Shown one piece after another: positions 6,764 through 53,400 of a stretch of 64,000 nucleotides of DNA. The stretch comes from a virus: positions 32,702 to 96,701 of the IMG/VR virus record IMGVR_UViG_3300025117_000050; one strand, written 5' to 3'. Under the pieces are notes generated by a model. The model saw nothing but the letters and a program-made list of their open reading frames with translations. It made no database searches and was not told the origin of the DNA. The translations under genes were made by a program, and so were the position numbers. How positions within the stretch are numbered: position 1 is the first letter of the stretch; every line of letters starts with the position of its first letter.

Positions 6764-6895
6764 TTACAAAAATTAACATAATATTAATATAAAAAATGAT
6801 TGCATAGGACGAACTCTGGTTATAATATATATTATAAAGCACTATAGAAGTGTTACAAAAGTGTAAAATAATATATATTATAAGGAGTGATTTTA

Positions 6896-7336
6896 ATGAT
6901 TATTAAAACTCAAACTGCTAATGCTGTTAATGCTCAATGTTATAGGAAAGAGGAAGAGGTTGATTGGAGGTCGTGGTGTCCTAAACGTGGAGAGATTTAT
7001 TTGTGTCAGTTAGGAAATGAAGGTTTATTATATTCAGAAATTAAGGGTTATCGTCCAGTTTTAATAGCATCAAATGATATAGCGAACAGGCATAGCCCAG
7101 TAGTTACTATAATTCCATTAACTTCCAGTCAAATAAAAAATAACTTACCTGTTCATGTTAAAGTAGGGGTAGAAGAAGGGTTGCGAAATTTGAGTTTAAT
7201 TTGTTGCGAGCAGACTAAAACTGTGTCAAAAAATAGAATGTTTATAAACGGTAGTTTAGTTAAAATATGCAAATTAAGTAATGAATTAATGTGTAAAGTG
7301 GACAACGCATTAAAAATACAATTCGGATTAGTTTAA
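6896..7336 (+). CDS. PemK/MazF-family endoribonuclease, no adjacent antitoxin
   Basis: KRGEIYL...SEIKGYRPVLIASND..N..SPVVTIIPLTS...HV...CEQTKTVSK.R; ATG at 6896 follows AAGGAG. Confidence 0.88.
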   Translation: MIIKTQTANAVNAQCYRKEEEVDWRSWCPKRGEIYLCQLGNEGLLYSEIKGYRPVLIASNDIANRHSPVVTIIPLTSSQIKNNLPVHVKVGVEEGLRNLSLICCEQTKTVSKNRMFINGSLVKICKLSNELMCKVDNALKIQFGLV

Positions 7337-7483
7337 TTAAAATAGTGTGGTTAGAATGTTAATATAATTATACATATTAATAAAAGGATGTGATGTTATT
7401 TGATTGTGTGAAAATTTATAAAGTATTGTGTTTTTAGTTTATTGGTTTGGATTGAAATAATAAAATATTAAAGGAGGATAAAT

Positions 7484-8842
7484 TTGTTAGTTAAAAATCA
7501 AAAAGTTAAAGTTAAATGGAATGGAGCACATAGAAAATATTATGAAGAAAAAGGTTATCCATTTACTAATTATGGTGATGAATTAGAGATAGACATAAAA
7601 GATTTAGCACCAAAAAGTCAAAAATATGTTTTAGTTAGTTGTGATTATTGCGGTATACCATTTATGAGGAGGTATTGTAATTACAATACAAGAAAAGAAA
7701 AATACGGTAAAGATGATAAAGATTGTTGTGATGATTGCAGAGTACATAAAAGAGAAGAAACATGTTTAGATAAATATGGTTTTAAAAATGCTGTTCAAGT
7801 AGAAGAAATACAAAATAAAATAAAAGAAACTATTAAGGAAAAATATGGAGTAGAATATATATCTCAAGTAGAAGAAATTAAAAATAAAAAGAAACAAACT
7901 TGTTTAGATAGATATGGAGTAGAATATACCTTGCAAGTTCCAGAGATTAGAGAAATGATTATAGAAACTAATATAAATAAATATGGAGTTGAAAATCCAT
8001 TTCAAAATGAAGAAATTAAAGAAAAAATCAGACAAGTCAATATGGATAAATATGGTGTAGAATATCCAATGCAATTACCTGAAATAAGAGAAAAAAGTCA
8101 AGAAACAACTTTTAAAAATCTTGGTGTTAAATATGCTATGCAATCTTATAAAACACAAGAAAAAAATAAACAATCTATTCAAGATAAATACGGATATACA
8201 AATATTTTTCAGATACCAGAGATAAAAGAAAAAATAAAGAAAATTAATATTAAAAAATATGGAGCGGAAAATCCTTTAAATAATAAAGAAATTAGAGAAA
8301 AAGCTAATAAAACTATAAAAGATAAATATGGTGTTGATAATGTTTCACAGAATCCAGAAATACAAGCAAAAATTAGACGTTCATTTTATAAAAATGGTAC
8401 TACTCCTACTTCAATTCAACAAAGATATATTTGTTTTTTAGTAAACGGTAAATTAAATTTTCCTATTGGAAGAACAAATGCAGATATATTGATAAATAAT
8501 AATATAATTATTGAATATGATGGTGGTGGACATAATCTAAGTGTAAAAATAGGAAATATAACGCAAGATCAATTTAATAGAAAAGAAATTAAAAAATATT
8601 ATTTTTTAAAAAGTAAAGGATATAAGATTATTAGAATTGTATCTGCTAAAGATAATTTACCTAAAGAAGAGAAAAGATTAATTGATGCTATAAATATAGC
8701 AATTGATTATTTAAATCAAAATCATTCTTGGTTTGAAATAAATATTGATGATGGAAAATTAAGATGTATTTGTTATGAAAAAGATTATAATTTTGGAGAA
8801 TTAAGAAGAGGAACAAAAGAAAATTTAGCTATAAATACATAA
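7484..8842 (+). CDS. Probable free-standing homing endonuclease: Zn-binding N-terminus, KYGV repeats, Vsr/DUF559-like nuclease C-terminus
   Basis: CDYC...CCDDC; about nine ~20-aa KYG(V)E repeats; C-terminal ADIL...IIEYDGGGH...GYKIIRI. Confidence 0.7.
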   Translation: MLVKNQKVKVKWNGAHRKYYEEKGYPFTNYGDELEIDIKDLAPKSQKYVLVSCDYCGIPFMRRYCNYNTRKEKYGKDDKDCCDDCRVHKREETCLDKYGFKNAVQVEEIQNKIKETIKEKYGVEYISQVEEIKNKKKQTCLDRYGVEYTLQVPEIREMIIETNINKYGVENPFQNEEIKEKIRQVNMDKYGVEYPMQLPEIREKSQETTFKNLGVKYAMQSYKTQEKNKQSIQDKYGYTNIFQIPEIKEKIKKINIKKYGAENPLNNKEIREKANKTIKDKYGVDNVSQNPEIQAKIRRSFYKNGTTPTSIQQRYICFLVNGKLNFPIGRTNADILINNNIIIEYDGGGHNLSVKIGNITQDQFNRKEIKKYYFLKSKGYKIIRIVSAKDNLPKEEKRLIDAINIAIDYLNQNHSWFEINIDDGKLRCICYEKDYNFGELRRGTKENLAINT

Positions 8843-8881
8843 ATATTATATATTAAAAATAAAAGGAGGATTATATATTTA

Positions 8882-9475
8882 TTGATTGAATTTATTATAG
8901 GAGCATTTTTATATGCTAAATTTAAAAAAGGTTATAAGTTAAAATACATATTTAAATACCCATACATATTTGCGATAATACCACCTTTATTATGTGTTTT
9001 ACTATACATATATTTAGAATATTGTGTTTTTAATCAGCAATATTGGTTTTTCCCTTATCAACATATAATAAAGACTACAACGCTTATAAGTTATGTTCCG
9101 TTGATTTATATATATAATTTATATTATAATGATATATATGAAAATGATACATTAAAATCATTTTTAACATCTCCTGCTAGTAAAACTACATTTTGTTTAG
9201 GATTAGGCTCATTTTTAAACTATATGGCAATTATCTCTAACAATATGAAAATGCCAGTATTTCCCAGTAATTGTTATTGGACTGGTTATATTAAACCTGA
9301 ATTCATTAATGATGGTTTACATGTGCTAGGTGATGCTTATACTAAAGCAATCCCCTTATGCGATTGGATCGATTTTGGAATATATGTAGCTAGTCCAGGT
9401 GATATATTAATAAGATCATTTGCATTTTTAATTATTTATCATTCTATAAAAAATTCTAATAAAATGATAAAATAA
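8882..9475 (+). CDS. DUF5317-like integral membrane protein
   Basis: Hydrophobic; GSFLNYMAIISNNMKMPV...H...PLCDWI...SPGDILI pattern. Confidence 0.7.
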   Translation: MIEFIIGAFLYAKFKKGYKLKYIFKYPYIFAIIPPLLCVLLYIYLEYCVFNQQYWFFPYQHIIKTTTLISYVPLIYIYNLYYNDIYENDTLKSFLTSPASKTTFCLGLGSFLNYMAIISNNMKMPVFPSNCYWTGYIKPEFINDGLHVLGDAYTKAIPLCDWIDFGIYVASPGDILIRSFAFLIIYHSIKNSNKMIK

Positions 9476-9478
9476 TTG

Positions 9479-9507
9479 TTGACACATAATTAACTCTGTG
9501 GTAATAT
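9479..9507 (+). promoter_or_regulatory. sigma-A-type promoter for the sensor-agrD unit
   Basis: TTGACA-17 bp-TAATAT with TG extension. Confidence 0.6.
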
Positions 9508-9543
9508 ATAAATAGAAAAAGTTGCTAAGGAGTTGATAGAGAA

Positions 9544-10338
9544 ATGATACATGATATTACAAATGCTTTGTTAAATTTTTTACTTGTAAGTGTTTTGGAG
9601 GAGTTTGTATGGTTGTTAATAACCATAATATTATTAAAAAGATTTGATTTGCTTGATAGATATAGATGGAAAGAGAGTATGCGAGAATTTTTAATACCTA
9701 TCTTACCAACTGCACTTTATATCAATTTATCTAGATATGTTTTACATATGCCTAGAATAATAATATTATTTGGATGTATATTTATATTTTATGGTTTGAC
9801 ATTATATATAATAAAGAAAAATTCATTTATAGATGAAAAATTACCATATTTAAAAATATTAATGTTTGTATTTATAGGTATTCTTATTATAGGAATAACA
9901 GAATTGATTTATATGCCAATAATTTTATATATTATACAACAACCAGTAACAATAATGAATCAAAATATTTTAATGAATTTTGCATTTTCAATACCATCTA
10001 GAATATTTCAAATATTATTAATTCTTGCATTAATTTATAAATATAATGAAATTAAATTATTCAGCAATATAATAAAAGATAAAGTATTATTAATTATTAC
10101 AGTGTTGTTTTTAAGTATTATATTGCTAATAGTATTTATTACAACAAAAATTATTCATAGTTATTGTTTAATTTTAAACTTTTCTTTATATTCACAAATA
10201 TTAATTGGAATTAGCATAACAACAATTATAACATTAATAATATTTTTTTATCTTATTCCAATTAATTATTTAATAAATAAAATGTTTTTACTTAACAAAT
10301 CACATCAAAATATGTTTGATGATGATTATATAGATTAA
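9544..10338 (+). CDS. Multi-pass membrane protein resembling an AgrC N-terminal sensor domain, without HisKA/HATPase
   Basis: About 7 hydrophobic segments over 264 aa; directly upstream of the agrD-like ORF; ends in acidic tail NMFDDDYID. Confidence 0.55.
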   Translation: MIHDITNALLNFLLVSVLEEFVWLLITIILLKRFDLLDRYRWKESMREFLIPILPTALYINLSRYVLHMPRIIILFGCIFIFYGLTLYIIKKNSFIDEKLPYLKILMFVFIGILIIGITELIYMPIILYIIQQPVTIMNQNILMNFAFSIPSRIFQILLILALIYKYNEIKLFSNIIKDKVLLIITVLFLSIILLIVFITTKIIHSYCLILNFSLYSQILIGISITTIITLIIFFYLIPINYLINKMFLLNKSHQNMFDDDYID

Positions 10339-10359
10339 AATAGAAAGGAGGGAAATTTC

Positions 10360-10479
10360 ATGAAAAAGTTTGCAATTATTACTTCTTTAATTGGTATTAT
10401 CGGCATTATCTGTGCAAATTGTATTAATTCTGCTTGGACATTTAACCAACCGAAAGCACCATCTATGTTAGTTAAGTAA
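10360..10479 (+). CDS. agrD: AgrD-like cyclic lactone autoinducer propeptide, 39 aa (not in ORF track)
   Basis: AGAAAGGAGGG RBS, then MKKFAIITSLIGIIGIICANCINSAWTFNQPKAPSMLVK: hydrophobic leader, S-A-W-T-F core, QPKAP tail as in clostridial AgrD; agrB 1.4 kb downstream. Confidence 0.88.
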   Translation: MKKFAIITSLIGIIGIICANCINSAWTFNQPKAPSMLVK

Positions 10480-10496
10480 TTTATAACTACATAGAA

Positions 10497-10536
10497 TATT
10501 TATAGTAGAGGATGATTGTTTTCTCTACTATAAATA
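10497..10536 (+). terminator. 14-bp hairpin after agrD
   Basis: TATTTATAGTAGAG / CTCTACTATAAATA perfect inverted repeat. Confidence 0.7.
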
Positions 10537-10556
10537 CAAAAAATAAATATAAATAC

Positions 10557-10585
10557 TTGTATTCTGGAGGATAGTATGGTAAAAT
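10557..10585 (+). promoter_or_regulatory. sigma-A-type promoter for the HTH-MazF gene
   Basis: TTGTAT-17 bp-TAAAAT with TG extension. Confidence 0.5.
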
Positions 10586-10631
10586 AATAGATGTAATATA
10601 TATAAAATATTAAATTGAGGAGTGATTAATA

Positions 10632-11528
10632 ATGTCAATATTATTTGGTAAGAAGAATGTATTAAAACCTACTTCTACAAATTCTATTTCTGAAATAACA
10701 AAGAAAGAGTTAGCTTACAATATAAGAGTTGCCGTAGGTCATCGAAGTATTACTCAAGTCTGTAATATATTAAAAATGGTCGATCCAAAACCATTAGTTG
10801 ACTTAATAAAAATGAATTATAATGAATTACCTGATAGACAATTACTTAGAAAAATTGCATCTGCAAGCGAAGGTAGGGTTTCTTATCAAAACCTTTATTC
10901 TGTCTGCGGTTATTCCGAATTTGATTCTGAAGAAGATCGTAGTTGGGCAAAGTGGGTTCCTGAACGTGGTAGTTGTTATATGATTGATTTAGGATGGAAT
11001 ATGGATAGTGAGCAAAATTCTGTGCGTCCGGCAATAGTGATGCAAAACAACAAAGGCAATCAATACTCAGGAACAACCGTTATTATCCCTATATCTTCTC
11101 GTTCTAAAAAATTTTCTTCACAGATTCATGTATTATTAGAAAAAGAATTAGGATTTTTACGGGAATGTCAATGTTTTCCAGAACAAATTCGCTGTGTTTC
11201 AAAAAGGAGGTTCTTCTATAATTCTGTACCTTATAAAATCACTACTTTACCAGAACATAAATTATTAGAAATCAAAAACGCACTTGAGTTTGAACTAGGT
11301 TTTGAGCCTTTATATTTTGACGAAGAAAAAATATTTAAATTAATTTCTCATATTCGTTCTTTAGAAAATAATATTAAAATCAAAAAATCACATAATCTAA
11401 TTGATATATTAAATCAAAAAATGGATGATCTAAAAGAATACTGTTCAAAATATCATAAGAATCACAAGATTATCTTACAAGAATACGATAGAATCAACAA
11501 TTGCGGTTACAATGCAGTATCCATATAA
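10632..11528 (+). CDS. XRE-like HTH / PemK-MazF fusion protein with helical C-terminus
   Basis: N-term AVGHRSITQV...PDRQLLRKIASASEGRVSYQNLYSVCGY resembles clostridial XRE repressors; middle ERGSCYMIDLG...SEQNSVRPAIVMQNNKGN...IIPISS...EQIRCVSKRR is PemK/MazF. Confidence 0.8.
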   Translation: MSILFGKKNVLKPTSTNSISEITKKELAYNIRVAVGHRSITQVCNILKMVDPKPLVDLIKMNYNELPDRQLLRKIASASEGRVSYQNLYSVCGYSEFDSEEDRSWAKWVPERGSCYMIDLGWNMDSEQNSVRPAIVMQNNKGNQYSGTTVIIPISSRSKKFSSQIHVLLEKELGFLRECQCFPEQIRCVSKRRFFYNSVPYKITTLPEHKLLEIKNALEFELGFEPLYFDEEKIFKLISHIRSLENNIKIKKSHNLIDILNQKMDDLKEYCSKYHKNHKIILQEYDRINNCGYNAVSI

Positions 11529-11590
11529 AACAACAAATCCAACCAAAATAAACAAATAAAACTAAAACAAAAAAAAGGAGATCAATTAAA

Positions 11591-11932
11591 ATGATAATCT
11601 TTGATGAAAAACAATTAAAATACTTATTTAATAAATACAAAATAAGATATAAAATATTTGAAGAAACAAATATTCTACTTATAGATAGTGGTCTTGATGA
11701 GTGGTTAATCAAGTATCAACATGGAAGAGATCAACCATATTGCCTTATGCACAAAAATAAATTAAAACAAACTAAAAGGTTCCATGTGCAGAGATGGTTG
11801 TCAAATTTTTATCAATCACTTGATAGTCTATTGTCACATAAAAATATTTTTGTAGATCATTCAAGTTCAAAAAATACATATAAAAAATATAGAAATAATA
11901 AAATAAATAATAAAAGGAGAAAAAGTTGTTAA
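11591..11932 (+). CDS. Basic hypothetical protein, overlapping the agrB start
   Basis: 113-aa ORF, AAGGAG RBS. Confidence 0.65.
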   Translation: MIIFDEKQLKYLFNKYKIRYKIFEETNILLIDSGLDEWLIKYQHGRDQPYCLMHKNKLKQTKRFHVQRWLSNFYQSLDSLLSHKNIFVDHSSSKNTYKKYRNNKINNKRRKSC

Positions 11933-12720
11933 AATATATAAAAAACTACATAATAACATTTCGTTATATCAAACTATTCTCATATTGGAATGCAAGATAT
12001 TTGCATAACAAACTAAAAGAAGAAAGAATTAGAGAATCACAAAACTTACATAATCCACATAAAGAAAAACATAAATATTATTATATATTGCAAATGATAA
12101 TTAAAAAATTATTTCAAATAATTAATAAAATAATTTCTTTAACTCCATTAGGAAGAAAACTATCATCGTACATAACTGAAAAATATTCACAATATAAACA
12201 GAAAGAGAAAAAACCTAAAAAAATATACAACAGATACACCTACTATTATGGTCTTCAAATAATCATCGGAGGCATAAATAAATTCCTTCTACTAATCATA
12301 CCAGGCTTACTATTTAACATCTTGCCGCAACTATTACTAACCACGTTATCATTTGTATCACTAAGAATATGGACTGGTGGTCTGCACTACAATTCTTATA
12401 CCAAATGCAGCTACATATCACTATTATCCTTCACACTCACAGCACTACTATCAAAATACATCATATTAAATCAATTTATCACTATGTCAATATTTCTATC
12501 TGTATTTATATTAATTTTAATCTATGCCCCTGTAGAACATCCAAACAGACCAATAAAAGAAAAAGAAAAAATTAAATACAAATTAATCGCATTATTTGTA
12601 TTAAGCACCTTAACTATTATCTATATGTTTACAAATAATGTTATTATCTGTAATTCTATTATATATGGGATATTATTAGCAGGTATAATTATGTTACCAA
12701 TTATAAATAAACTAAGATAA
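11926..12720 (+). CDS. agrB: AgrB autoinducer-processing membrane peptidase with basic N-terminal extension
   Basis: YGLQII, LRIWTGGLH...TKC (catalytic His and Cys), YAPVEHPNRPI signature. Confidence 0.92.
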   Translation: MLKYIKNYIITFRYIKLFSYWNARYLHNKLKEERIRESQNLHNPHKEKHKYYYILQMIIKKLFQIINKIISLTPLGRKLSSYITEKYSQYKQKEKKPKKIYNRYTYYYGLQIIIGGINKFLLLIIPGLLFNILPQLLLTTLSFVSLRIWTGGLHYNSYTKCSYISLLSFTLTALLSKYIILNQFITMSIFLSVFILILIYAPVEHPNRPIKEKEKIKYKLIALFVLSTLTIIYMFTNNVIICNSIIYGILLAGIIMLPIINKLR

Positions 12721-12851
12721 TTATTAACATAATTTCGTAAATGGTCGATAAATGTCGGTAGGTGCGTATTGTTAATATGCTAAATATTATATAGAATAAT
12801 AGTATTAAAACATATTAATCACAAATTAAATTAAAATATGAATTTAGGCTA

Positions 12852-12905
12852 TTGTTTTTTTATTATTAAGGTATTATAATAGAACAAATATACAAACAAA
12901 TGTTC
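12852..12905 (+). promoter_or_regulatory. Promoter with tandem LexA (Cheo)-like boxes just downstream of -10
   Basis: TTGTTT-17 bp-TATAAT, then GAAC-AAAT-ATAC (12882-12893) and AAAC-AAAT-GTTC (12894-12905) versus consensus GAAC-N4-GTTC. Confidence 0.55.
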
Positions 12906-13160
12906 TACAAACAAATAGAGGAGGAGATTGTTACGAATAAAACAGTTTACACAATAAAAGATGAAAATGACAAATATGTACATGGTAATAGTATTAAAAA
13001 AATTAATGAAAAGTATTATTATTCCCCATATTCATGTTTAGAAGATGGTTGTATTGCTTATACTAATAAAATAAGAGTAGAGGAAGCATTGACTACTCTT
13101 AAATTACATAATCAACTAGGTGGGCTAGGTCACAAATTTATTATTACGCTTGTTTCATAA
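12900..13160 (+). CDS. Small hypothetical protein, probably SOS-regulated; start uncertain
   Basis: ORF track; the strong GAGGAGG at about 12918 lies inside the ORF, so the true start may be ATT 12927 or ACG 12933. Confidence 0.55.
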   Translation: MFYKQIEEEIVTNKTVYTIKDENDKYVHGNSIKKINEKYYYSPYSCLEDGCIAYTNKIRVEEALTTLKLHNQLGGLGHKFIITLVS

Positions 13161-13182
13161 TCAATAAATAATAATTTTTCTA

Positions 13183-13211
13183 TTGACATAGCATACTAAT
13201 ACATATATAAT
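13183..13211 (+). promoter_or_regulatory. Consensus sigma-A promoter for the putative repressor operon
   Basis: TTGACA-17 bp-TATAAT. Confidence 0.8.
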
Positions 13212-13258
13212 AATCATTAATGAGATATTATATATAAATAAAAAAGAGGTGAGTAACT

Positions 13259-14635
13259 ATGCTTAATATTAAAAATGCTATGTTGATAAAAGAATTAAAA
13301 CCACTAATAATTAAATATGGAAACAATTCAAAAATTTATAATCTTGTTCACGAATCCTTTATTAAAAAGGGTTTAACGGGTAGTAATGCAAAAAATCTAT
13401 TTACAGGTAAACTACCATTAGAATCTTTAGATATCACTTGTCAAAAAGAATTATATTTATTATTTTCTTTTACTGATAGCATGAGAAAAGCATTAAATTC
13501 ATTTGATGAAATGTCTAAAGATACTTTTGGTTCAGAAGAAGAGTACTCAAAATTAAAACTAGAAAATTATTTTACTCCTATGGAAATTGAAGAGTTTACG
13601 GATTTCGTGATAGAGAAAGAAGAAATAAGTAGATATCCTTACAGATTAAAAAACATGTTAAAAGTTGGGGAAAATCACTATATAGGCATTATATCTGCTA
13701 GAGAATTATCTTGGATAGATGCCTCCAATGACATTGTTTATGATTTCGCTGTACAGCGTGATCCCAAAATTGATATATTTGGCATGAAACGTATTAATAC
13801 TGATTTAAAGAAAATAGATGAAATGACAGAGAAGTTACTTTCTGGCAATTACTTTTCAGATGAAATTAAGTTAAATGTTAAGAATGATGGTGAAGATCAT
13901 ATCGAATTCGATTCAAAAGACGGAATTTATGGTGATCTTATTATTCATTCAGGAACAATAACTTGTTTTGACGGTTATCACAGAAAAGCAGCCAATTCAA
14001 AAGTTATGAATATTAATAATGAATTGCAATTTAATTGGAAACTAGGTGTTACTAACTATCCAGAACCTAAAGCAAAAAAATTCATGATTCAAATTAACAA
14101 ACAAAAACCTATTAAGATTGAACACATCAGAAATATTGATGAAACAAGAAATGAAAATGTAATTGTCAATAATATTATCAATAATTCTAATTCCGAACTT
14201 GCTGATAAGATTAAAGATTCTGATGCAGAATTAAAACATGGTGGATTAACTAAAAAATCTATATTATCTTTAGCAATAGAAGAACAATATAAGGAATTTT
14301 TAGTTACTAAAATCAATAATATTGAAATATCTAATTGGATAGTAGAATTCACAAATCATTTAATGGGATTATATACTAACGAATTTTTATTTAATGTAGA
14401 CAAAACTAAAAAAATAAGTTATATTAATCATAAGAATATGTTTATGGGATATATCGCACTTTCAAGAAAATTGTATAAGCAAGATGATTGGAAAAATAAA
14501 ACTAAAAAAATAATGGAAAGCGTTGATTTTAGCATTGATAATGATATTTGGAAAAGTATTAAAATCAATGAAGATAATTTAAATAAAACATCAAAGAATG
14601 AATTATATAATATATTTATTAAAAAGCAGGTGTAA
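13259..14635 (+). CDS. DGQHR/DndB/ParB-like domain protein, resembling SPbeta YopQ (SroE)
   Basis: YDFAVQRD, FSDEIKLNV, FDGYHR, FMIQINKQKP motifs; sits directly upstream of an integrase-like gene. Confidence 0.6.
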   Translation: MLNIKNAMLIKELKPLIIKYGNNSKIYNLVHESFIKKGLTGSNAKNLFTGKLPLESLDITCQKELYLLFSFTDSMRKALNSFDEMSKDTFGSEEEYSKLKLENYFTPMEIEEFTDFVIEKEEISRYPYRLKNMLKVGENHYIGIISARELSWIDASNDIVYDFAVQRDPKIDIFGMKRINTDLKKIDEMTEKLLSGNYFSDEIKLNVKNDGEDHIEFDSKDGIYGDLIIHSGTITCFDGYHRKAANSKVMNINNELQFNWKLGVTNYPEPKAKKFMIQINKQKPIKIEHIRNIDETRNENVIVNNIINNSNSELADKIKDSDAELKHGGLTKKSILSLAIEEQYKEFLVTKINNIEISNWIVEFTNHLMGLYTNEFLFNVDKTKKISYINHKNMFMGYIALSRKLYKQDDWKNKTKKIMESVDFSIDNDIWKSIKINEDNLNKTSKNELYNIFIKKQV

Positions 14636-14640
14636 AATAA

Positions 14641-15711
14641 ATGGTAAAACATAGAAACGGGAGAAAAAATTTAGCAGAAAGAGTGTTTAAGCATGATAGA
14701 GATGTTAAAGAAGAATTCTTAAAATCATTGAAACCCTCAACTGCTAATACTGTAAGAAGTATACTTTTTAAGGTAGATGAATATGAAGAATTAATTGGGA
14801 AAAGTATATATGATTTTAATTTAGATGATCGTGATGATTTTATTATATCTATGTTCCCTAATAAAAGTAAAGGTGTTATTAATACAACTAGATCATATCT
14901 GGTAGGATATATTAATTATTGTATTGACAATAACCTTGTTAGACATATGGAAAATAGATTTAGTTTAATCTCTAAAGATGATATAGATAATTATGTCAAT
15001 GATATGGCTATGCAAATGAAGTACCTGTCGAAGGAAGAAATTAAAGAAGCACAAAGTAAATTGGTTAATAATTGTGATAAATTAATTTTGCAATTAGTTC
15101 CTTTATCAGCCAGAGGTCGCACCGAAAAGGATAATACTAATGAAGAATTAATAAATTTAAGAGTGCAAGATGCTGTAGAATCTTACGAAAAAGGCAATCT
15201 AAAACTTTGGAATAATGATGGAGATTTTAGGTATATAAAAATTGATGATGAAACAATAGAATTATTAAAGAAAACTATAAATGATGATAAATATATCATT
15301 AATAATGGAAGTGAATATAGTCGTAAAAGACATGATAAAAAACTTGGCAGAGGCATGGGAGAAAAAAGTTTCCCTTTAAATGATACTGGCTATGTTTTTA
15401 GAACTGCTGGCAAGAATAAAAGGGGTAAAGTTAAATCCAATTATTTTAATTCTAAAATTAATATAATAAAAGATTGGGTGGAGAATCCATTTATTAACAT
15501 AACTAATTTACACGCATCAGGTATGATTGATTATGTCATCCAATTAGAAAATGAAAAAGGAGAAGAATTAGATAATAACGACTATATAGATGTTTGTGAA
15601 AAATATTTATTTGGTAAACCTAGAATTTTGCCCAATGGTGAAAATGATTGGAGTATGTCAATATCAAAATTAAAGACAATGGTAAAAGATTATATTAATA
15701 TTAAATCATAA
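14641..15711 (+). CDS. Tyrosine-recombinase-fold protein lacking the HxxR motif; putative master repressor like SPbeta YopR/SroF/MrpR
   Basis: SAM-like N-terminus (KEEFL...EELIGKSIYDFN...YINYCI), box I-like ARG...EELINLRVQD, box II region reads ITNLHASG. Confidence 0.6.
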   Translation: MVKHRNGRKNLAERVFKHDRDVKEEFLKSLKPSTANTVRSILFKVDEYEELIGKSIYDFNLDDRDDFIISMFPNKSKGVINTTRSYLVGYINYCIDNNLVRHMENRFSLISKDDIDNYVNDMAMQMKYLSKEEIKEAQSKLVNNCDKLILQLVPLSARGRTEKDNTNEELINLRVQDAVESYEKGNLKLWNNDGDFRYIKIDDETIELLKKTINDDKYIINNGSEYSRKRHDKKLGRGMGEKSFPLNDTGYVFRTAGKNKRGKVKSNYFNSKINIIKDWVENPFINITNLHASGMIDYVIQLENEKGEELDNNDYIDVCEKYLFGKPRILPNGENDWSMSISKLKTMVKDYINIKS

Positions 15712-15723
15712 GGATGTGAAAAA

Positions 15724-16578
15724 ATGGCGAAAAATAGTATTAACTTATCTGACTATGAAGATATAGAAGTTTATAATATGGTTAGGTTTGGAATTATAGG
15801 TAGATTTCCTAATAATTTTTGGGGTGGATTAGATACTTATAAAACTGCAAAAGACCTGACTAGATATATGTTTGAAAATATTCTTGAATGGAGTATAGAA
15901 GATATTAAGCATAAGGTAACAGCAGATATTTTTTATGAAAATAAACTTGGTAATATGCTAAAAACACTTTTTGATAATAATTTATTAGATGCATTGCTTA
16001 ACGCATACCCAGAATTAGCAGATTGGGTAGAAGAAAAAAAGAATAAAATTATTATCGAAAAAGAACCAAGAGAAAAATATACAGATGAAGAGTTAATAGA
16101 AAATTTACAGCAAAAATATAAGGAATTAAATAGAACACCTTATATAAGAGAAATGTCTGAACCAGAAGGAAATGTTTATATATCAAGATTTGGTAGTTGG
16201 AGTAATGCTTTAATTCTTGCTGAGTTAATTGAGGACATATGTGTAGATGTAGATAATTCAGAAGAAGCAATTAATAAAGCGCAAAGGGAAATTAAAGATT
16301 TTGCGTATAAAGTAGAAAGATTACCAACTAAAAAAGAAGTAGATAATTTATTTTCTCCTGGAGAATTAATATCATATTTCGGTTCTTTAAAAGGACTTTA
16401 TGATTATTTAAGTGAAGGTTATACAGAAGAAGAATTAATAAATATATTAATTGATAAAAGAAATAAATTAGGGAGAAATCCAATAAATAAGGATATAAAA
16501 TTCCCAAGACCAATTATCTTTATTGATAAATTCAATAGTTGGGAGAATGCCTTAAAAGAAGCAAGATTAGATGAATAA
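15724..16578 (+). CDS. DUF4046-like domain plus homing-endonuclease-associated repeats, no nuclease domain seen
   Basis: FPNNFW...RYMFENILEW...ALLNAYP, then three YTDEELI...RTP...FGSW..AL-type repeats. Confidence 0.6.
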   Translation: MAKNSINLSDYEDIEVYNMVRFGIIGRFPNNFWGGLDTYKTAKDLTRYMFENILEWSIEDIKHKVTADIFYENKLGNMLKTLFDNNLLDALLNAYPELADWVEEKKNKIIIEKEPREKYTDEELIENLQQKYKELNRTPYIREMSEPEGNVYISRFGSWSNALILAELIEDICVDVDNSEEAINKAQREIKDFAYKVERLPTKKEVDNLFSPGELISYFGSLKGLYDYLSEGYTEEELINILIDKRNKLGRNPINKDIKFPRPIIFIDKFNSWENALKEARLDE

Positions 16579-16595
16579 TTTAATCTTGCTTCTTT
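16555..16595. terminator. Bidirectional terminator between convergent genes
   Basis: AAAGAAGCAAGATTA ... TAATCTTGCTTCTTT. Confidence 0.75.
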
Positions 16596-16598
16596 TAT

Positions 16599-16832
16599 TT
16601 ATGTCAAACCCTTAATCCATTTTTCAGCAGCTAAACAGCATCCTTCAAAACTATTGAATTTAATATCTTCATTCAAAGAAATATAAATAATATCGTTATC
16701 ACGATCTATCTGAAAGTGATAGTAATATGTATCAGGCATATAATAAATATACGCTTTACATCCTTTTGCTCATCTTGCTATGCTGACCCACGTAGGGTAT
16801 ACTTTACGCTTTAATATTCTTTTAAATTTCAT
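16599..16832 (-). pseudogene. Minus-strand small gene with in-frame TGA at codon 21
   Basis: AAGGAAGTG RBS; MKFKRILKRKVYPTWVSIAR*AKGCKAYIYY...AAEKWIKGLT; ends at the shared terminator. Confidence 0.55.
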
Positions 16833-17704: not shown

Positions 17705-18316
17705 ATGAAACCTATAAACAAAGAATTAATCATCAAAGTATGTGAGCATATAATAGAACACAATCTTTCTTATAGAAAAATAGCTGATATATTCGGAATC
17801 AATTTCAAAACTGTTTACAATTATACACAAATGATTGAAAGTATTGATTCCGAATTACATATAAAAGTCCAAAAATGTTTAAAAGAGAGAAAGGAAAAAC
17901 ATCATAAACATTTATTGAAAAACTTAAACAATATCTATAAAGAAATTTGTGAATATTTTATTTGTGGAAGTACCATGAAACAGACTGGAATACATTTTAA
18001 TTCCAGTAATCGCTCTATACACTATTTATTCCATAATTATGTTAAATATAATGATCCTGAATTATATGTTATGATTTTAGAAATGATAGAATTAAATAAA
18101 CTTAAATCAATTAAGACACGTTCTGGAATAAGAAAGATGAAAAACATTGAAGAAAGATTAAATCTTTGTAAGACTATTATTAGTGACAAATTAACTTTGA
18201 AAGCAACAAGTGAAATATTTGATTTAGATGTAAAGACGATAAAAAGTTATATTAATAGTATAAGAGATGTGGATTATGGATTGCATGATGAAGTTTATAA
18301 ACATTTGTGGAGATAA
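17705..18316 (+). CDS. Protein of three tandem SpoIIID-like HTH units
   Basis: IIKVCEHIIEHNLSYRKIADIFGINFKTVY...IDSELHIKV and two further copies resemble SpoIIID (IGKYIVETKKTVRVIAKEFGVSKSTVH...INPDLANEV). Confidence 0.65.
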   Translation: MKPINKELIIKVCEHIIEHNLSYRKIADIFGINFKTVYNYTQMIESIDSELHIKVQKCLKERKEKHHKHLLKNLNNIYKEICEYFICGSTMKQTGIHFNSSNRSIHYLFHNYVKYNDPELYVMILEMIELNKLKSIKTRSGIRKMKNIEERLNLCKTIISDKLTLKATSEIFDLDVKTIKSYINSIRDVDYGLHDEVYKHLWR

Positions 18317-38032: not shown

Positions 38033-39130
38033 ATGAGTAGAAAATTAGCAAGCATTAAAACTATCTCAGATATTCAACCAATTGAAAATAGAGATAGGAT
38101 AGAATTGGTGATTGTGGATGGATGGCAAATTATTGTTAAAAAAGGTGAATACAAAATAGGTGATAAAACTATTTTTGTAGAAATTGATTCGGTATTACCT
38201 GAAATACCAGAGTTTGAATTTTTAAGATCGAAGAAATTCAGAATCAAAACAATGAAAATGGCAGGTACATTATCTCAAGGTATTTGTTTACCACTATCTA
38301 TTTTGCCTACAAATAGACAATATAAATTAGAAGATGATGTTACAGAGATAATTGGAATTAAACAATATGAAACAACAAGGGATATTGAACCAGAAGAAAT
38401 AATACCTAAAAATAATAAAAAATTTCAACATCCTATTTTTAAGTATTTATTTAAATATTCATTGTTTAGAAATTTATTATTACCTAAAAAACAAAATAAA
38501 GATTTTCCTGAATTCATATATAAAACTGATGAGACAAGAATTCAAAATATGCCATTTATATTAAAGAATAAAGATAATACATATGTTGTTCGTGAGAAAA
38601 TAAATGGTCAATCAGGCACATTCTTTCTAAAGAAAATGAATAAAAAGTGGTCTTGGCAAAAACAAAATTATGATTTTGGTGTATGTTCAAGAAATCTTAG
38701 ATTATGGAACGAAACAGATAATAGTTATTGGTTTGTTGCAAAGAAGTATAATATAAAAGAAGTGCTTAAAAATTTAATTGGAGATAATGATTTTGTAGCA
38801 ATTCAAGGAGAATGTATATCTCCAAAAGTACAAGGTAATAAATATAAAGTTTCTGAAGCAGATTTATATACTTTTAATCTTATTTATCCAGATGGTAAAG
38901 TATCTTGTCTATGGGGAGAAGAAATATTAAAGCATCATGGGATTAAATGGTGTCCTTTGATTGAGAAGAATTTTATATTACCTGATTCAGTTAATGAATT
39001 ACTTGATTATTCAACAGGCAAATCAAAATTATATAATACTTTAAGAGAAGGTTTAGTATTTAGAAATTATGAAAAGAATTTATCATTTAAAGCGGTAAGT
39101 CCTGAATTTTTGATTAAGAATGATGAATAG
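38033..39130 (+). CDS. RNA ligase, DRB0094/Rnl2-like
   Basis: N-term RKLASI...DRIE...VDGWQ...EIDS; KTDETRIQN, EKINGQS (motif I), QGE, REGLV, SFKAVS.EFL. Confidence 0.88.
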   Translation: MSRKLASIKTISDIQPIENRDRIELVIVDGWQIIVKKGEYKIGDKTIFVEIDSVLPEIPEFEFLRSKKFRIKTMKMAGTLSQGICLPLSILPTNRQYKLEDDVTEIIGIKQYETTRDIEPEEIIPKNNKKFQHPIFKYLFKYSLFRNLLLPKKQNKDFPEFIYKTDETRIQNMPFILKNKDNTYVVREKINGQSGTFFLKKMNKKWSWQKQNYDFGVCSRNLRLWNETDNSYWFVAKKYNIKEVLKNLIGDNDFVAIQGECISPKVQGNKYKVSEADLYTFNLIYPDGKVSCLWGEEILKHHGIKWCPLIEKNFILPDSVNELLDYSTGKSKLYNTLREGLVFRNYEKNLSFKAVSPEFLIKNDE

Positions 39131-50424: not shown

Positions 50425-53400
50425 ATGTCAAAAAAGAAACTAACTAACTATGTAAATAAACAAGCAATTAGAGAAGTATTAGGTTGTCTAATTCAGACTC
50501 CAAAATTATTAAGAGAGTATAAAATTTCAAAATCTGATTTTCCTGAAGATTTTCATAAATTAATATTCGCAGCAATTAATAATCTATATAAAAATGGAAT
50601 TGAGAATATTGATGCAGTAGCAATAGATGAATATCTTTCTCATTATGAAACACAGTATAAAATATTTGAAAAAAATCAGGGAATAGAGTTTATTAATAAT
50701 ATTGAAGAATTGTCAAGTGTAGCAAATATTAAATATTATTATGAACAATTAAAGAAATTTTCATTATTAAGAAGATATATGGAGCATGGTATTGATGTAT
50801 CAGATTTTTTTAATCCAAATGAAATAGACCCTGTGACAATTGAAAGTCAACAAGAAAAATTAGATAGTAGTTCAATACAAGATATAATTAATCATTTTAA
50901 AAGAAAACATTTAGAAGTTGTTGCACCATTTAGTATAGGAGAAGGTAGAGATACTAAAAAAGCAGGAGTAGGAGGATTAGAGCAAAAAGAACGATGGAAA
51001 AAAGATACTGCATGGGGAATTGGATATTCAAGTGCTTATTTAACTACTGTTTTTCATGGATTGAGAAAAAGAAGATTTACTGTTAAATCTGCTGGAACAG
51101 GTGTGGGCAAAGCAATACCTAATTATACAATTATTCCTACTCCTGATGGATACAAAACAGTTGGAGAAATACAAAAAGGAGATTTTCTATTTGGTCAAAA
51201 TGGAGAAAAAACTAAAGTTTTAGAGGTTTATCCACAGTCAGAAAAAAAGCAAGTTTATAAAATAACATTTTCTGATGGAAGAACCGCAGAATGTTGTAAG
51301 GATCATTTGTGGACTTATATATACGAAGGACATAGAGAAAAAAAACATAGAACAGAATCTATAGAAGATATTATTAAAAGAAGTAAAGGAACATATCAAA
51401 ACAAAAAAGGATGTTATAAATACAAAATACCTCTTAATGAACCTATTAAATATACTGAAAAGCAATATTCAATAGAACCTTATATATTAGGTTTATTATT
51501 AGGAGATGGAAGTTTTAGATATAATAAGACTAATAAATCTCTACCATTTTCTTCTATAAATGAAGAACTTCCTAGTGCTATTGCTAAATCATTAAATTAT
51601 AATTATAAAAAAAATAAAGCAAAAAATTATACTTATACTTTTGGCACACAAGGGAAAAATTTGTGGATTTCAGAAATTTTAAAAGATTACCCTGAATTAT
51701 GGCAATCTAAATCAGAAACTAAATTTATTCCTCGTAATTATTTAGAAGGTTCTATAGAACAAAGATATGATTTACTTGCTGGTTTATTGGATACAGATGG
51801 AAGCATTGGGGAAAAAGGAAGAATTCAATATACTACAACTTCTTCTTTATTAAGAGATAATGTTATTGAGTTATGTAGAAGTCTTGGTATGATTGCTACT
51901 TATTCAATTGATAAAAGAAAAGAAAAATATACCATTGGTGAATGTTATACAGTTCGTATTCAATGCAAAGCAAAAGAAAAAATAAAATTATTTAAATTAT
52001 TAAGAAAAGTTAAAATAGCTAAATCATATCTTAATAATAATAAAAGAAAAGAATTAAAAAACTATATTTCAATAAAAAATATTGAAATACTTGACAAATA
52101 TGAAGATATGACTTGTTTTACAGTAGATAATGAATCTCATTTATTTTTAATGAATGATTTTATAGTAACTCATAATACTCGCACAACAATAGCAGATATA
52201 GGATACTCTTGTTCTCCTGCTTATTATGATAAAAACAAAAAAGCATGGATTCAAAATCCTAACGGTATAAATAATGGGGCGTTATACATAGGTACAGAAA
52301 TGGAATTACTTGAAGAAATTGACCCTATTTTATGGGCATATATAGCGGATGTTCCACAAGAACATATTGAATTTAATATGTATGAAGGCAATGAAGAAGA
52401 AAGAGTTGATGAGGCAATTAGGATCTTAGAAGAAGATGCAAATATATGGTTTGAATATCTTCCAAATTATGATTCTGAAATGCTTGCTGATGTAATAGAA
52501 GAACATAAAATACAACATAATATTTCTCATGTATGGTTTGATTATATACATACAACTGTTGAATTGAGTGCTGAATTTGGTGCTGAGTCTAAAGTAAAAA
52601 TGGTAGTTAGAGAGGATCAGATACTAGCAAATTTATCTAGTAAACTTAAAAATTATACACGAAAATTTGATGTTTCTATAGATGCAGGAACACAAGTAAA
52701 TGATAAGTCTAAAGATGAAAAAAATAGAGATGAAACAATTGTTCGTGGTTCAAAGGCATTAATTGATTAAAGAAATATACTTCTTCACTTTTATAAAATA
52801 AAAAATAAGAAAGGAGAATTATTGAAAAAAATAATTATTCCAGATGAAGAGAAAGATAGAATATTAATTTTATATTCACAAGGTTTTGGTTATAGAATAA
52901 TACATAAAATATTAAAACCAAATTATTCAGAAGGTATAATTTTAAGATATTTAAGAGAAAGCAAAGCAATAGAAACAGATCGATTATATAGAAAATATGA
53001 ATATAATAAACTATTTTTTAAAATAATAGACAATGAAGAAAAAGCATATTGGTTGGGATTCCTATACGCAGATGGAAATGTTAGTGATAGAGAAGTTAGA
53101 ATAAATTTAAATTCAAGAGATAGGAATCATCTTGAGAAATTTTTACAATCAATAGAAGGCAACAACACAATTGAAGATGGCATTCAAAATTCTTTTGGAA
53201 CAATAACTAATTATAGTAGAGTGTCTATTAATAGTATTGAAATGATAAGAGACTTAACTAAGTTAGGATGCATCCCTAGAAAATCTCAAATATTAAAATA
53301 TCCCAATGAAGAACAAGTTCCTAAATATTTAATTAATCATTTTATTAGAGGATATTTAGATGGAGATGGAAGTATAATAATTTCAAGTAAAAATCAATGG

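Follow-up and report, generated by a model that had tools for sequence, protein, structure and literature searches.

A candidate Agr-type peptide cassette with phage-encoded MazF proteins in the arbitrium position of SPbeta-like phages

To our knowledge, arbitrium is the only well-understood peptide language for the lysis-lysogeny decision of phages, and it is confined to Bacillus-type phages. In SPbeta, its genes precede a repressor operon in the order yopK(aimR)-yopL(aimP)-yopM-N-O-P-Q-R, and the signal is a linear hexapeptide imported by Opp. YopR, called SroF or MrpR, is described as the master repressor and SroE as a second repressor (PMC10516654; bioRxiv 10.1101/2025.11.27.690993), repressor function being established for SPbeta MrpR (PMC10516654) and for SroF and SroE (bioRxiv 10.1101/2025.11.27.690993). 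In phi3T, MazF activity, provided by host MazEF, promotes lysogeny (PMC10769878). Phage agr genes without agrA are also known and are thought to rely on host components, and reviews mention only phage agrB, agrC and agrD of unknown role (PMC11945551). Here we describe a cassette of Agr-type peptide genes and MazF RNase genes in the arbitrium position of a viral DNA stretch of 64,000 nucleotides (bases 32702-96701 of the 96.7-kb IMG/VR record IMGVR_UViG_3300025117_000050). This whole stretch is called the window, and its coordinates are used below unless marked. We see an even chance that the cassette is a non-canonical Agr-type peptide switch which controls lysis and lysogeny in place of arbitrium.

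The cassette and the repressor operon

The source record has a guanine-plus-cytosine (GC) content of about 25%, was judged 49% complete and carries all its genes on the plus strand. Every gene listed in an earlier, sequence-only reading of this DNA is present on that strand, as scans against Pfam, NCBIfam and PHROG and comparison with relatives showed. Those on which the argument depends are given here; HTH stands for helix-turn-helix, and TM7 is our name for a protein with about seven transmembrane (TM) helices.

6887-7336 (alternative ATG at 6896), plus strand: stand-alone MazF/PemK RNase, here MazF1 (PF02452, 4.9e-23; phrog_1936)
8882-9475, plus strand: DUF5317 membrane protein (PF17248, 9.2e-13)
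9544-10338, plus strand: TM7, 264 residues, candidate kinase-less receptor of the autoinducing peptide (AIP) (AlphaFold2, AF2, model; no family match)
10360-10479, plus strand: agrD, propeptide of 39 residues (positional homologue in every relative; no hidden Markov model, HMM, match)
10632-11528, plus strand: HTH-MazF fusion (XMazF), 298 residues, candidate effector (PF02452, 3.4e-17, residues 111-219)
11926-12720, plus strand: agrB, membrane peptidase/cyclase for AgrD (PF04647, 9.1e-37)
12900-13160, plus strand: small gene under a LexA-type box, start codon uncertain (homologous genes in relatives)
13259-14635, plus strand: YopQ/SroE homologue with a DGYHR motif (tblastn; phrog_5732, 1.8e-62)
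14641-15711, plus strand: homologue of the master repressor YopR/MrpR/SroF, integrase-like fold (PF22822 MrpR_N_CB, 4.2e-13; phrog_5830, 2.7e-46)

The position of the cassette is defined by the last two genes. In tblastn searches of GenBank phages, 13259-14635 matched yopQ of SPBc2 (1e-14) and phi3T (1e-21), with values of 1e-14 to 1e-25 across SPbeta-like phages, and 14641-15711, directly 3′ of it, matched yopR (1e-9). The YopQ and YopR identities presumed in the sequence-only reading therefore hold, and the adjacency of the two genes is kept wherever the contigs of relatives reach that far. We equate SroE with YopQ by gene order, and the repressor roles of both proteins in the window phage are predictions by analogy. 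Since aimR-aimP lies upstream of the same operon in SPbeta, the cassette occupies the position of arbitrium, as had been proposed. Farther downstream, genes for a PolIII-alpha-type polymerase, a DnaB helicase with an intein, RecJ, RecD2 and NAD ligase form a replication set resembling that of SPbeta, which, together with the yopQ-yopR pair, bears out the assignment to an SPbeta-like phage.

A gene for a large serine recombinase, a feature of SPbeta too, is present in the relatives G001 and G003, in line with a temperate life style. The best explanation of these data is that the family consists of SPbeta-like phages with large genomes (about 150-230 kb) whose hosts are low-GC anaerobic Firmicutes, and that the region is their lysis-lysogeny control region. 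Megablast of the region against GenBank phages gave no match. A SpoIIID-like HTH protein encoded at 17705-18316 is 91% identical to its counterpart in a relative (L017:8960-9571) whose YopQ and YopR are only 33-36% identical, a sign that the sequences surrounding the switch are strongly mosaic.

Viral contigs scanned with the HTH-MazF fusion or TM7 as single-protein queries returned nothing, and alignment-based scans were needed. An alignment of 17 TM7 relatives retrieved 16 IMG/VR contigs of 25-230 kb and two contigs from metagenome-assembled genomes (MAGs; one Clostridium sp., one Bacillota bacterium), and a scan seeded with distant TM7 relatives added about 15 metagenome contigs. Comparison of the loci by tblastn and family HMMs revealed a recurrent order, MazF1 – (endonuclease) – DUF5317 – TM7 – agrD – HTH-MazF – (113-residue gene) – agrB – (second TM7) – small gene – yopQ – yopR, in which the DUF5317 gene is always immediately upstream of the TM7 gene. 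With about 30 contigs sharing this order at protein identities of 25-80% (lowest 25-30%), the cluster is clearly conserved in related phages, as the sequence-only reading required.

Three relatives are complete (167, 167 and 230 kb, two of them with terminal repeats). Neither the AgrC-type ATPase domain HATPase_c_5 (PF14501) nor the LytTR domain of AgrA was found in the 96.7-kb record or in these three genomes, so that the absence of a phosphorelay, first noted in the window, extends to complete phages. The MazE_antitoxin domain was likewise not found in the three complete relatives. In the window itself, the sequence-only reading had likewise seen no AgrA, histidine kinase or MazE. Outside it, 12 kb upstream, lies an AbrB/MazE-type open reading frame (ORF) of 74 residues (PF04014, 4e-10; G000:C1:20492-20629), absent from four relatives, which could encode either a regulator like AbrB or a MazE-like protein that counteracts the phage MazFs. 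A search for AimR with SPbeta YopK as a single-sequence query, run without a positive control, matched nothing in five records, three of them complete. Compared with arbitrium, we found no relative of AimR or AimP and identified no AimX-like inhibitor, while the placement of a phage peptide module just upstream of sroE/sroF and the involvement of a MazF RNase are shared with SPbeta and phi3T.

The predicted peptide and its membrane partner

AgrB and AgrD of these phages resemble those of the canonical agrBDCA systems of Staphylococcus and Clostridium. The His-x6-Cys dyad of AgrB (G-G-x-H-x6-C) is kept in 14/14 orthologues, and an AgrD-like ORF of 37-47 residues lies between the TM7 and HTH-MazF genes at every locus, although that of the window had no HMM match in Pfam or NCBIfam. 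In all loci, these ORFs begin with MKK, continue with a hydrophobic leader and carry a Ser that never varies, six residues ahead of a QPxxP follower like that of C. perfringens AgrD, and the four residues between the Ser and the follower region are hypervariable. The spacing of the Ser, which we take to be equal to that of the Cys in C. perfringens AgrD, predicts a five-residue ring as in canonical systems, closed as a lactone since Ser replaces Cys. In the window phage, the ring would be Ser-Ala-Trp-Thr-Phe, followed by N-QPKAP. Ser-lactone AIPs are known, although rare (PMC8251862). Such an AgrB-cyclised product would differ from the linear peptide of arbitrium.

The locus departs further from canonical agr in lacking the AgrC kinase and AgrA and in having an unrelated 7-TM membrane partner. 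The Clostridium phage phiCDHM1 (agrB-agrD-agrC) also carries Agr signaling genes without agrA, but it has a full AgrC kinase and neither MazF nor yopQ/yopR, and its agr genes are on the opposite strand, flanked by the lysis genes on one side and the lysogeny module on the other. Window AgrB and TM7 matched no GenBank phage by tblastn; specifically, neither the AgrB of phiCDHM1 nor a TM7 relative in that phage was hit.

Phages with nearly the same repressors carry sharply different cassette alleles. Between L018 and L019, YopQ and YopR are both 100% identical, whereas identity is 45% for TM7, 65% for AgrB and 59% for HTH-MazF, and the variable ring residues are WLFT and WFWL. The same is seen for L014 and L057 (YopQ 97%, YopR 100%, TM7 47%, AgrB 66%, HTH-MazF 90%; YFIS and WLVA) and for the window and L013 (YopQ 81%, YopR 75%, TM7 39%, AgrB 61%, HTH-MazF 56%; AWTF and FMGL). 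TM7 is the most divergent gene between near-identical phages. Across 21 loci, ring identity followed TM7 identity most closely (Mantel r 0.61, P 3e-4; partial r 0.49 after controlling for YopQ), and its correlation with AgrB (r 0.40) and the HTH-MazF fusion (r 0.37) was weaker. The co-variation of the AIP core with the 7-TM protein that the sequence-only reading had called for is thus present. Joint divergence of peptide, cyclase and membrane partner is the pattern of agr specificity groups, in which hypervariable alleles likewise span these three components, and it argues for phage-specific signals. The alleles of TM7, AgrB and AgrD thus show the pattern of pherotypes.

We then considered what kind of protein TM7 is. 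Its AF2 model (pLDDT 81) has about seven long membrane helices, and its conserved parts are S-x-P-E-E in TM1, E120, a KRFDLLD loop and an acidic tail, Q/H-Q-N-M-x-DDD. On the positive-inside rule, we read the N terminus as lying outside and the KRFDLLD loop and acidic tail as cytoplasmic. A profile search of 1.84 billion representatives gave 227 clusters at E <= 0.001, and among the 150 listed, all were fragments or proteins of 240-326 residues, none long enough for a kinase domain. The Atlas cluster of TM7 has 637 members, 76% of them viral, and in one class of genomes TM7 occurred in 1/399, the MAG already known.

No match to TM7 was found in Pfam, NCBIfam or PHROG. In the PDB, Foldseek and VIA-align picked up nothing beyond generic helical similarity (best Z 8.2 over about 100 residues), and Atlas structures stayed below a TM-score of 0.4. 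Alignment by hhalign with the N terminus of phiCDHM1 AgrC, the one AgrC compared, had a probability of 0.1%. TM7 shows no detectable similarity to an AgrC sensor in this comparison and belongs to a separate, unnamed family. As a candidate receptor, it would also set this system apart from arbitrium by being a membrane protein.

Some relatives carry a second TM7 paralogue after agrB (L014:12764-13597, L021:10001-10852, L022:12611-13432 and L051:6451-7314). These copies are 35-54% identical to the first copy and have no AgrD-like ORF beside them, a finding that suits a receptor better than a processing enzyme. We also considered whether they eavesdrop on the signals read by the first copies of other phages, but rejected this, as second copies cluster only with each other.

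TM7 might nevertheless be a second AgrD-processing enzyme or exporter, analogous to MroQ, with the cytoplasmic HTH-MazF protein or a stand-alone XRE protein sensing the peptide after uptake in the manner of RRNPP or arbitrium systems. In S. aureus, AgrD requires a leader peptidase, and some membrane helices of TM7, which is linked to agrB and agrD everywhere, contain acidic residues that never vary (S-x-P-E-E in TM1 and E120). TM7 has, however, no conserved His or known protease motif, its conservation is strongest in the parts read as cytoplasmic, namely the KRFDLLD loop and the C-terminal tail, and the remainder varies with the ring, copies without a peptide gene exist, and we know of no uptake of cyclic AIPs. 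We consider a processing role with cytoplasmic sensing very unlikely.

A distant TM7 subgroup (about 310 residues) is found in agrB–TM7–agrD loci of bacterial-looking contigs, with a convergent HTH_3/XRE gene conserved alongside. In one example, a 328-kb contig with housekeeping genes, agrB, a TM7 relative of 310 residues, agrD and the convergent HTH_3/XRE gene occupy L038:6235-9136, with no agrC or agrA nearby; the same arrangement was seen in L029, L031-L034, L037 and L040. These bacterial-type TM7 relatives have an extra C-terminal helical domain, and their agrD genes are mostly of the Ser type, one being of the Cys type. A transfer of this helical domain to the C terminus of the phage fusion was considered and rejected (hhalign probability 1.6%). 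The loci indicate that TM7 regularly accompanies AgrBD where there is no AgrCA and that it travels with an XRE-type protein, which is separate in the bacterial-looking loci, while in the phages an XRE-like domain is fused to MazF. The module may be an undescribed kind of Agr system, and we found no description in the literature of an agrB-membrane protein-agrD-XRE module, of DUF5317 or of agr together with MazF in a phage switch. We tentatively raise the possibility, which we hold to be doubtful, that a cyclic Agr peptide is here sensed without a two-component system, the 7-TM receptor contacting an XRE-type regulator that is fused to MazF in the phages, so that a quorum signal would gate an mRNA interferase. 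The cuts of this RNase would reshape the transcriptome around a repressor operon without cleavage sites and so set lysis against lysogeny, and phages would have a second communication system, independent in origin and with pherotypes of its own.

A different role for the peptide would be manipulation of the host, in which the phage AIP acts on host AgrC/AgrA, TM7 and DUF5317 only process or export it, and the MazFs serve as an unrelated toxin, in host shutoff or in addiction. The proposed dependence of other phage agr genes without agrA on host components (PMC11945551) and the precedent of phiCDHM1 speak for this, as do the lack of resemblance of TM7 to any receptor and the presence, elsewhere in the MAG that holds L027, of a LytTR gene adjoining an AgrC-type kinase gene. 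On the other hand, the HTH-MazF gene lies between agrD and agrB at every locus and diverges along with them, and the cassette is always next to the repressor operon, whereas the agr genes of phiCDHM1 occupy a moron site near the lysis genes. Sharply different alleles beside identical repressors fit phage-specific signals better than one host receptor, and a processing role would leave the orphan second TM7 copies without a purpose. Taken together, we regard host manipulation as unlikely.

MazF proteins and the UACAU content of the repressor operon

No phage cassette on a contig that extends far enough lacks the HTH-MazF fusion. The AF2 model of the fusion (pLDDT 79) shows five helices at residues 21-91, a MazF core at 111-222 and a three-helix tail at 231-290. 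Foldseek aligned the core with MazF of B. subtilis, B. anthracis and S. aureus (E about 1e-11, 33-36% identity), the catalytic Arg is conserved in 14/14 orthologues, and Thr or Ser occupies the P-[LI]-[TS] site in 14/14. The N-terminal domain is structurally like HTH_3/XRE and CI/LexA-like N-domains in the Atlas (TM-score 0.60-0.72), while profile searches against PDB sequences and Pfam gave no HTH match at the sequence level; a match to a transferrin-binding protein (E 0.012) was rejected as chance. Of the "XRE-MazF" label in the sequence-only reading, the MazF part (PF02452, Foldseek) is thus secure, and the XRE part is a call from predicted structure. The fusion shares with type II MazEF the fold and catalytic residues of MazF, but it differs in having no adjacent MazE and in its N-terminal HTH-like domain and C-terminal helical tail. 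In being phage encoded and HTH fused, it also differs from the host MazEF on which SPbeta and phi3T draw.

In MazF1, the Arg of RPxhh is present in 8/8 orthologues and P-[LI]-[TS]-S in 6/8 (simple pattern), and no antitoxin gene adjoins it. The gene is missing from the flanks of L011, L012, L015, L017 and L027, and only one gene of the PemK type occurs in the complete genome G002, which makes the fusion the core MazF. Of the MazF pair that had been proposed as the output, MazF1, missing from several relatives including a complete one, is therefore accessory. The window also encodes an RNA ligase (38033-39130; PHA02142 OB-fold and RNA_ligase domains), which might repair cleaved RNAs in a phage with two MazF RNases.

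UACAU is the cleavage site of the MazF proteins of B. subtilis, S. aureus and C. difficile. We counted TACAT in each gene family and compared it with synonymous-codon shuffles that preserve each protein and its codon usage. In yopQ plus yopR (16 dereplicated pairs), 13 sites were observed and 41 expected (z -5.2), which made TACAT the most depleted of 686 pentamers, with the proviso that the orthologues are related and the shuffle statistics overstate their independence; rank 1 is hard to ascribe to chance. SPbeta yopQ and yopR showed no such depletion. AgrB genes were mildly depleted (34 observed, 47 expected, z -2.5), TM7 genes had 77 sites against 62 (z +2.7), and mazF genes had a mild excess (35 against 27, z +2.0). 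In DUF5317 genes, TACAT was about 1.7-fold enriched (79 observed, 45-46 expected, z +7) and was the second most enriched of 375 pentamers. In the same shuffles these genes were enriched in TACATA, ACATA reaching z +8.6 and TACAT z +7.0. If the phage MazF cuts UACAU, DUF5317 mRNA would be a preferred target.

The avoidance is also visible in the layout of the operon, whose signals are as follows.

13183-13211, plus strand: sigma-70-type promoter of the repressor operon, TTGACA-17-TATAAT (12/12 consensus matches)
13200-16757, plus strand: longest UACAU-free stretch of the 96.7-kb record, 3557 nucleotides (TACAT scan)
15724-16578, plus strand: HNH-repeat/DUF4046 gene, final gene of the UACAU-free transcription unit (domain scan)
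16553-16597: terminator of the repressor unit (terminator scan)

The UACAU-free stretch thus spans the repressor promoter to past the terminator. In related loci, the longest TACAT-free stretch overlaps yopQ-yopR in 9/14, and the order of yopR followed by an HNH-repeat/DUF4046 homologue recurs in L013, L020 and L027. Avoidance of UACAU in yopQ-yopR fits a MazF that favors lysogeny, as in phi3T, and the link to MazF that had been drawn from SPbeta-family phages is supported across the family in this respect.

We next looked at the small gene between agrB and yopQ. In the window, a TATAAT is followed by a LexA-type operator.

12873-12906, plus strand: TATAAT then LexA-type operator, AGAACAAATATAC-AAACAAATGTTCT (motif search)

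The box itself, AAACAAATGTTC at 12894-12905, does not by itself exceed chance expectation (2 matches found in the window, 1.33 expected). A 26-nucleotide inverted repeat, AGAACA-N14-TGTTCT, was rejected as the LexA box for its spacing, the real box being the AAAC-N4-GTTC embedded in it. In relatives, GAAC-N4-GTTC occurs between agrB and yopQ in 13/18 dereplicated loci and is usually unique within 11-21 kb; a TATAAT closely precedes it, and a homologous gene of 83-135 residues follows. The SOS-boxed small gene of the sequence-only reading therefore does not stand on the window box, and it does stand on positional conservation. Sar/YopT is described as a LexA-controlled antirepressor of SroF (bioRxiv 10.1101/2025.11.27.690993), and the LexA-boxed small gene is a candidate for an SOS-induced antirepressor of the same kind. 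A separate LexA-controlled small gene adjoining the repressor is a trait shared with SPbeta and phi3T, where it lies downstream of sroF and not, as here, upstream of sroE.

These observations also bear on a role in kin recognition, superinfection or abortive infection, in which the peptide would mark carriers of related prophages and the MazF fusion, switched on or off, would block superinfecting or competing phages, with no part in the choice of the resident phage itself. MazEF is a phage-defense system modulated by arbitrium phages (PMC10769878), pherotype diversification is also expected for kin discrimination, and a UACAU-free repressor operon would shield a resident prophage during toxin action. 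However, the cassette sits precisely where arbitrium does, sroE/sroF follow it in the same way and a small gene under SOS control accompanies it, and Pfam and PHROG scans, PADLOC not being searched, showed no antitoxin or typical defense gene in the cassette. A part in kin recognition alone is, in our estimate, quite improbable.

The remaining features of the region are accessory or consensus matches.

7484-8842, plus strand: homing endonuclease (DUF7487, 9.8e-54; phrog_12131, 8e-78) with tandem repeats of 69 nucleotides (23 residues)
9479-9507, plus strand: promoter-like site before the TM7/agrD unit, TTGACA-17-TAATAT with TG (consensus match only)
10479-10554, plus strand: AT-rich inverted repeat I8 after agrD, 32-nucleotide arms, 75% complementary, possible TM7-agrD terminator (repeat search; missed by the terminator scan)
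11591-11932, plus strand: basic protein of 113 residues without family match (Pfam scan)

The endonuclease gene is missing between MazF1 and DUF5317 in L016 and L018, which indicates an insertion that is not part of the switch, and its relatives occupy different places in related phages. Its seven tandem repeats (repeat family D1) lie at 7743-8371. The 113-residue protein is accessory, only 4 relatives carrying a homologue. Elsewhere in the window, the DnaB-type helicase gene (50425-52770) is split by an intein that contains a homing endonuclease of the LAGLIDADG type (Hom_end, LAGLIDADG_3, Intein_splicing).

A possible route from peptide to repressor

In the switch that we propose, AgrB would cut and cyclise AgrD into a five-residue Ser-lactone peptide, with DUF5317 possibly aiding its processing or export. 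The peptide would build up outside infected or lysogenic cells and be read by the phage's own kinase-less 7-TM receptor which, through its cytoplasmic loop and acidic tail, may hold, release or activate the HTH-MazF fusion. The MazF RNase would then cut UACAU-containing phage and host mRNAs and spare the UACAU-free yopQ-yopR (sroE-sroF) operon. Because of this sparing, high peptide, that is, many related phages or lysogens, would favor repressor build-up and lysogeny, as host MazF does for phi3T. DNA damage would enter separately, through the LexA-controlled small gene upstream of the repressor operon, probably a Sar-like antirepressor.

Several points weigh against this proposal, the first being that the case rests wholly on computation. 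TM7 is without detectable likeness to AgrC or any known receptor, and since AgrB also co-varies with AgrD (r 0.40), TM7 could instead serve to process or export the peptide. That the fusion has an HTH domain is a call from predicted structure only. The UACAU specificity of the phage MazFs is assumed by analogy, being carried over from the MazF proteins of B. subtilis, S. aureus and C. difficile, and the avoidance of this site could equally guard against host MazF. Moreover, the mazF genes themselves are not UACAU depleted, and agrB is mildly so.

If the proposal is true, an Agr-based system operates in phages of anaerobes, and such communication evolved more than once. Reliance on MazF for this choice, described for host MazF in 2024, would then be deep enough for phages to carry their own. 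The UACAU-free repressor operon offers a simple, falsifiable model of an RNase biasing a genetic switch. TM7 is also a candidate answer to the old puzzle of how the signal is sensed at agrBD loci without agrCA, a point which the agrB-7TM-agrD-XRE module makes directly testable.

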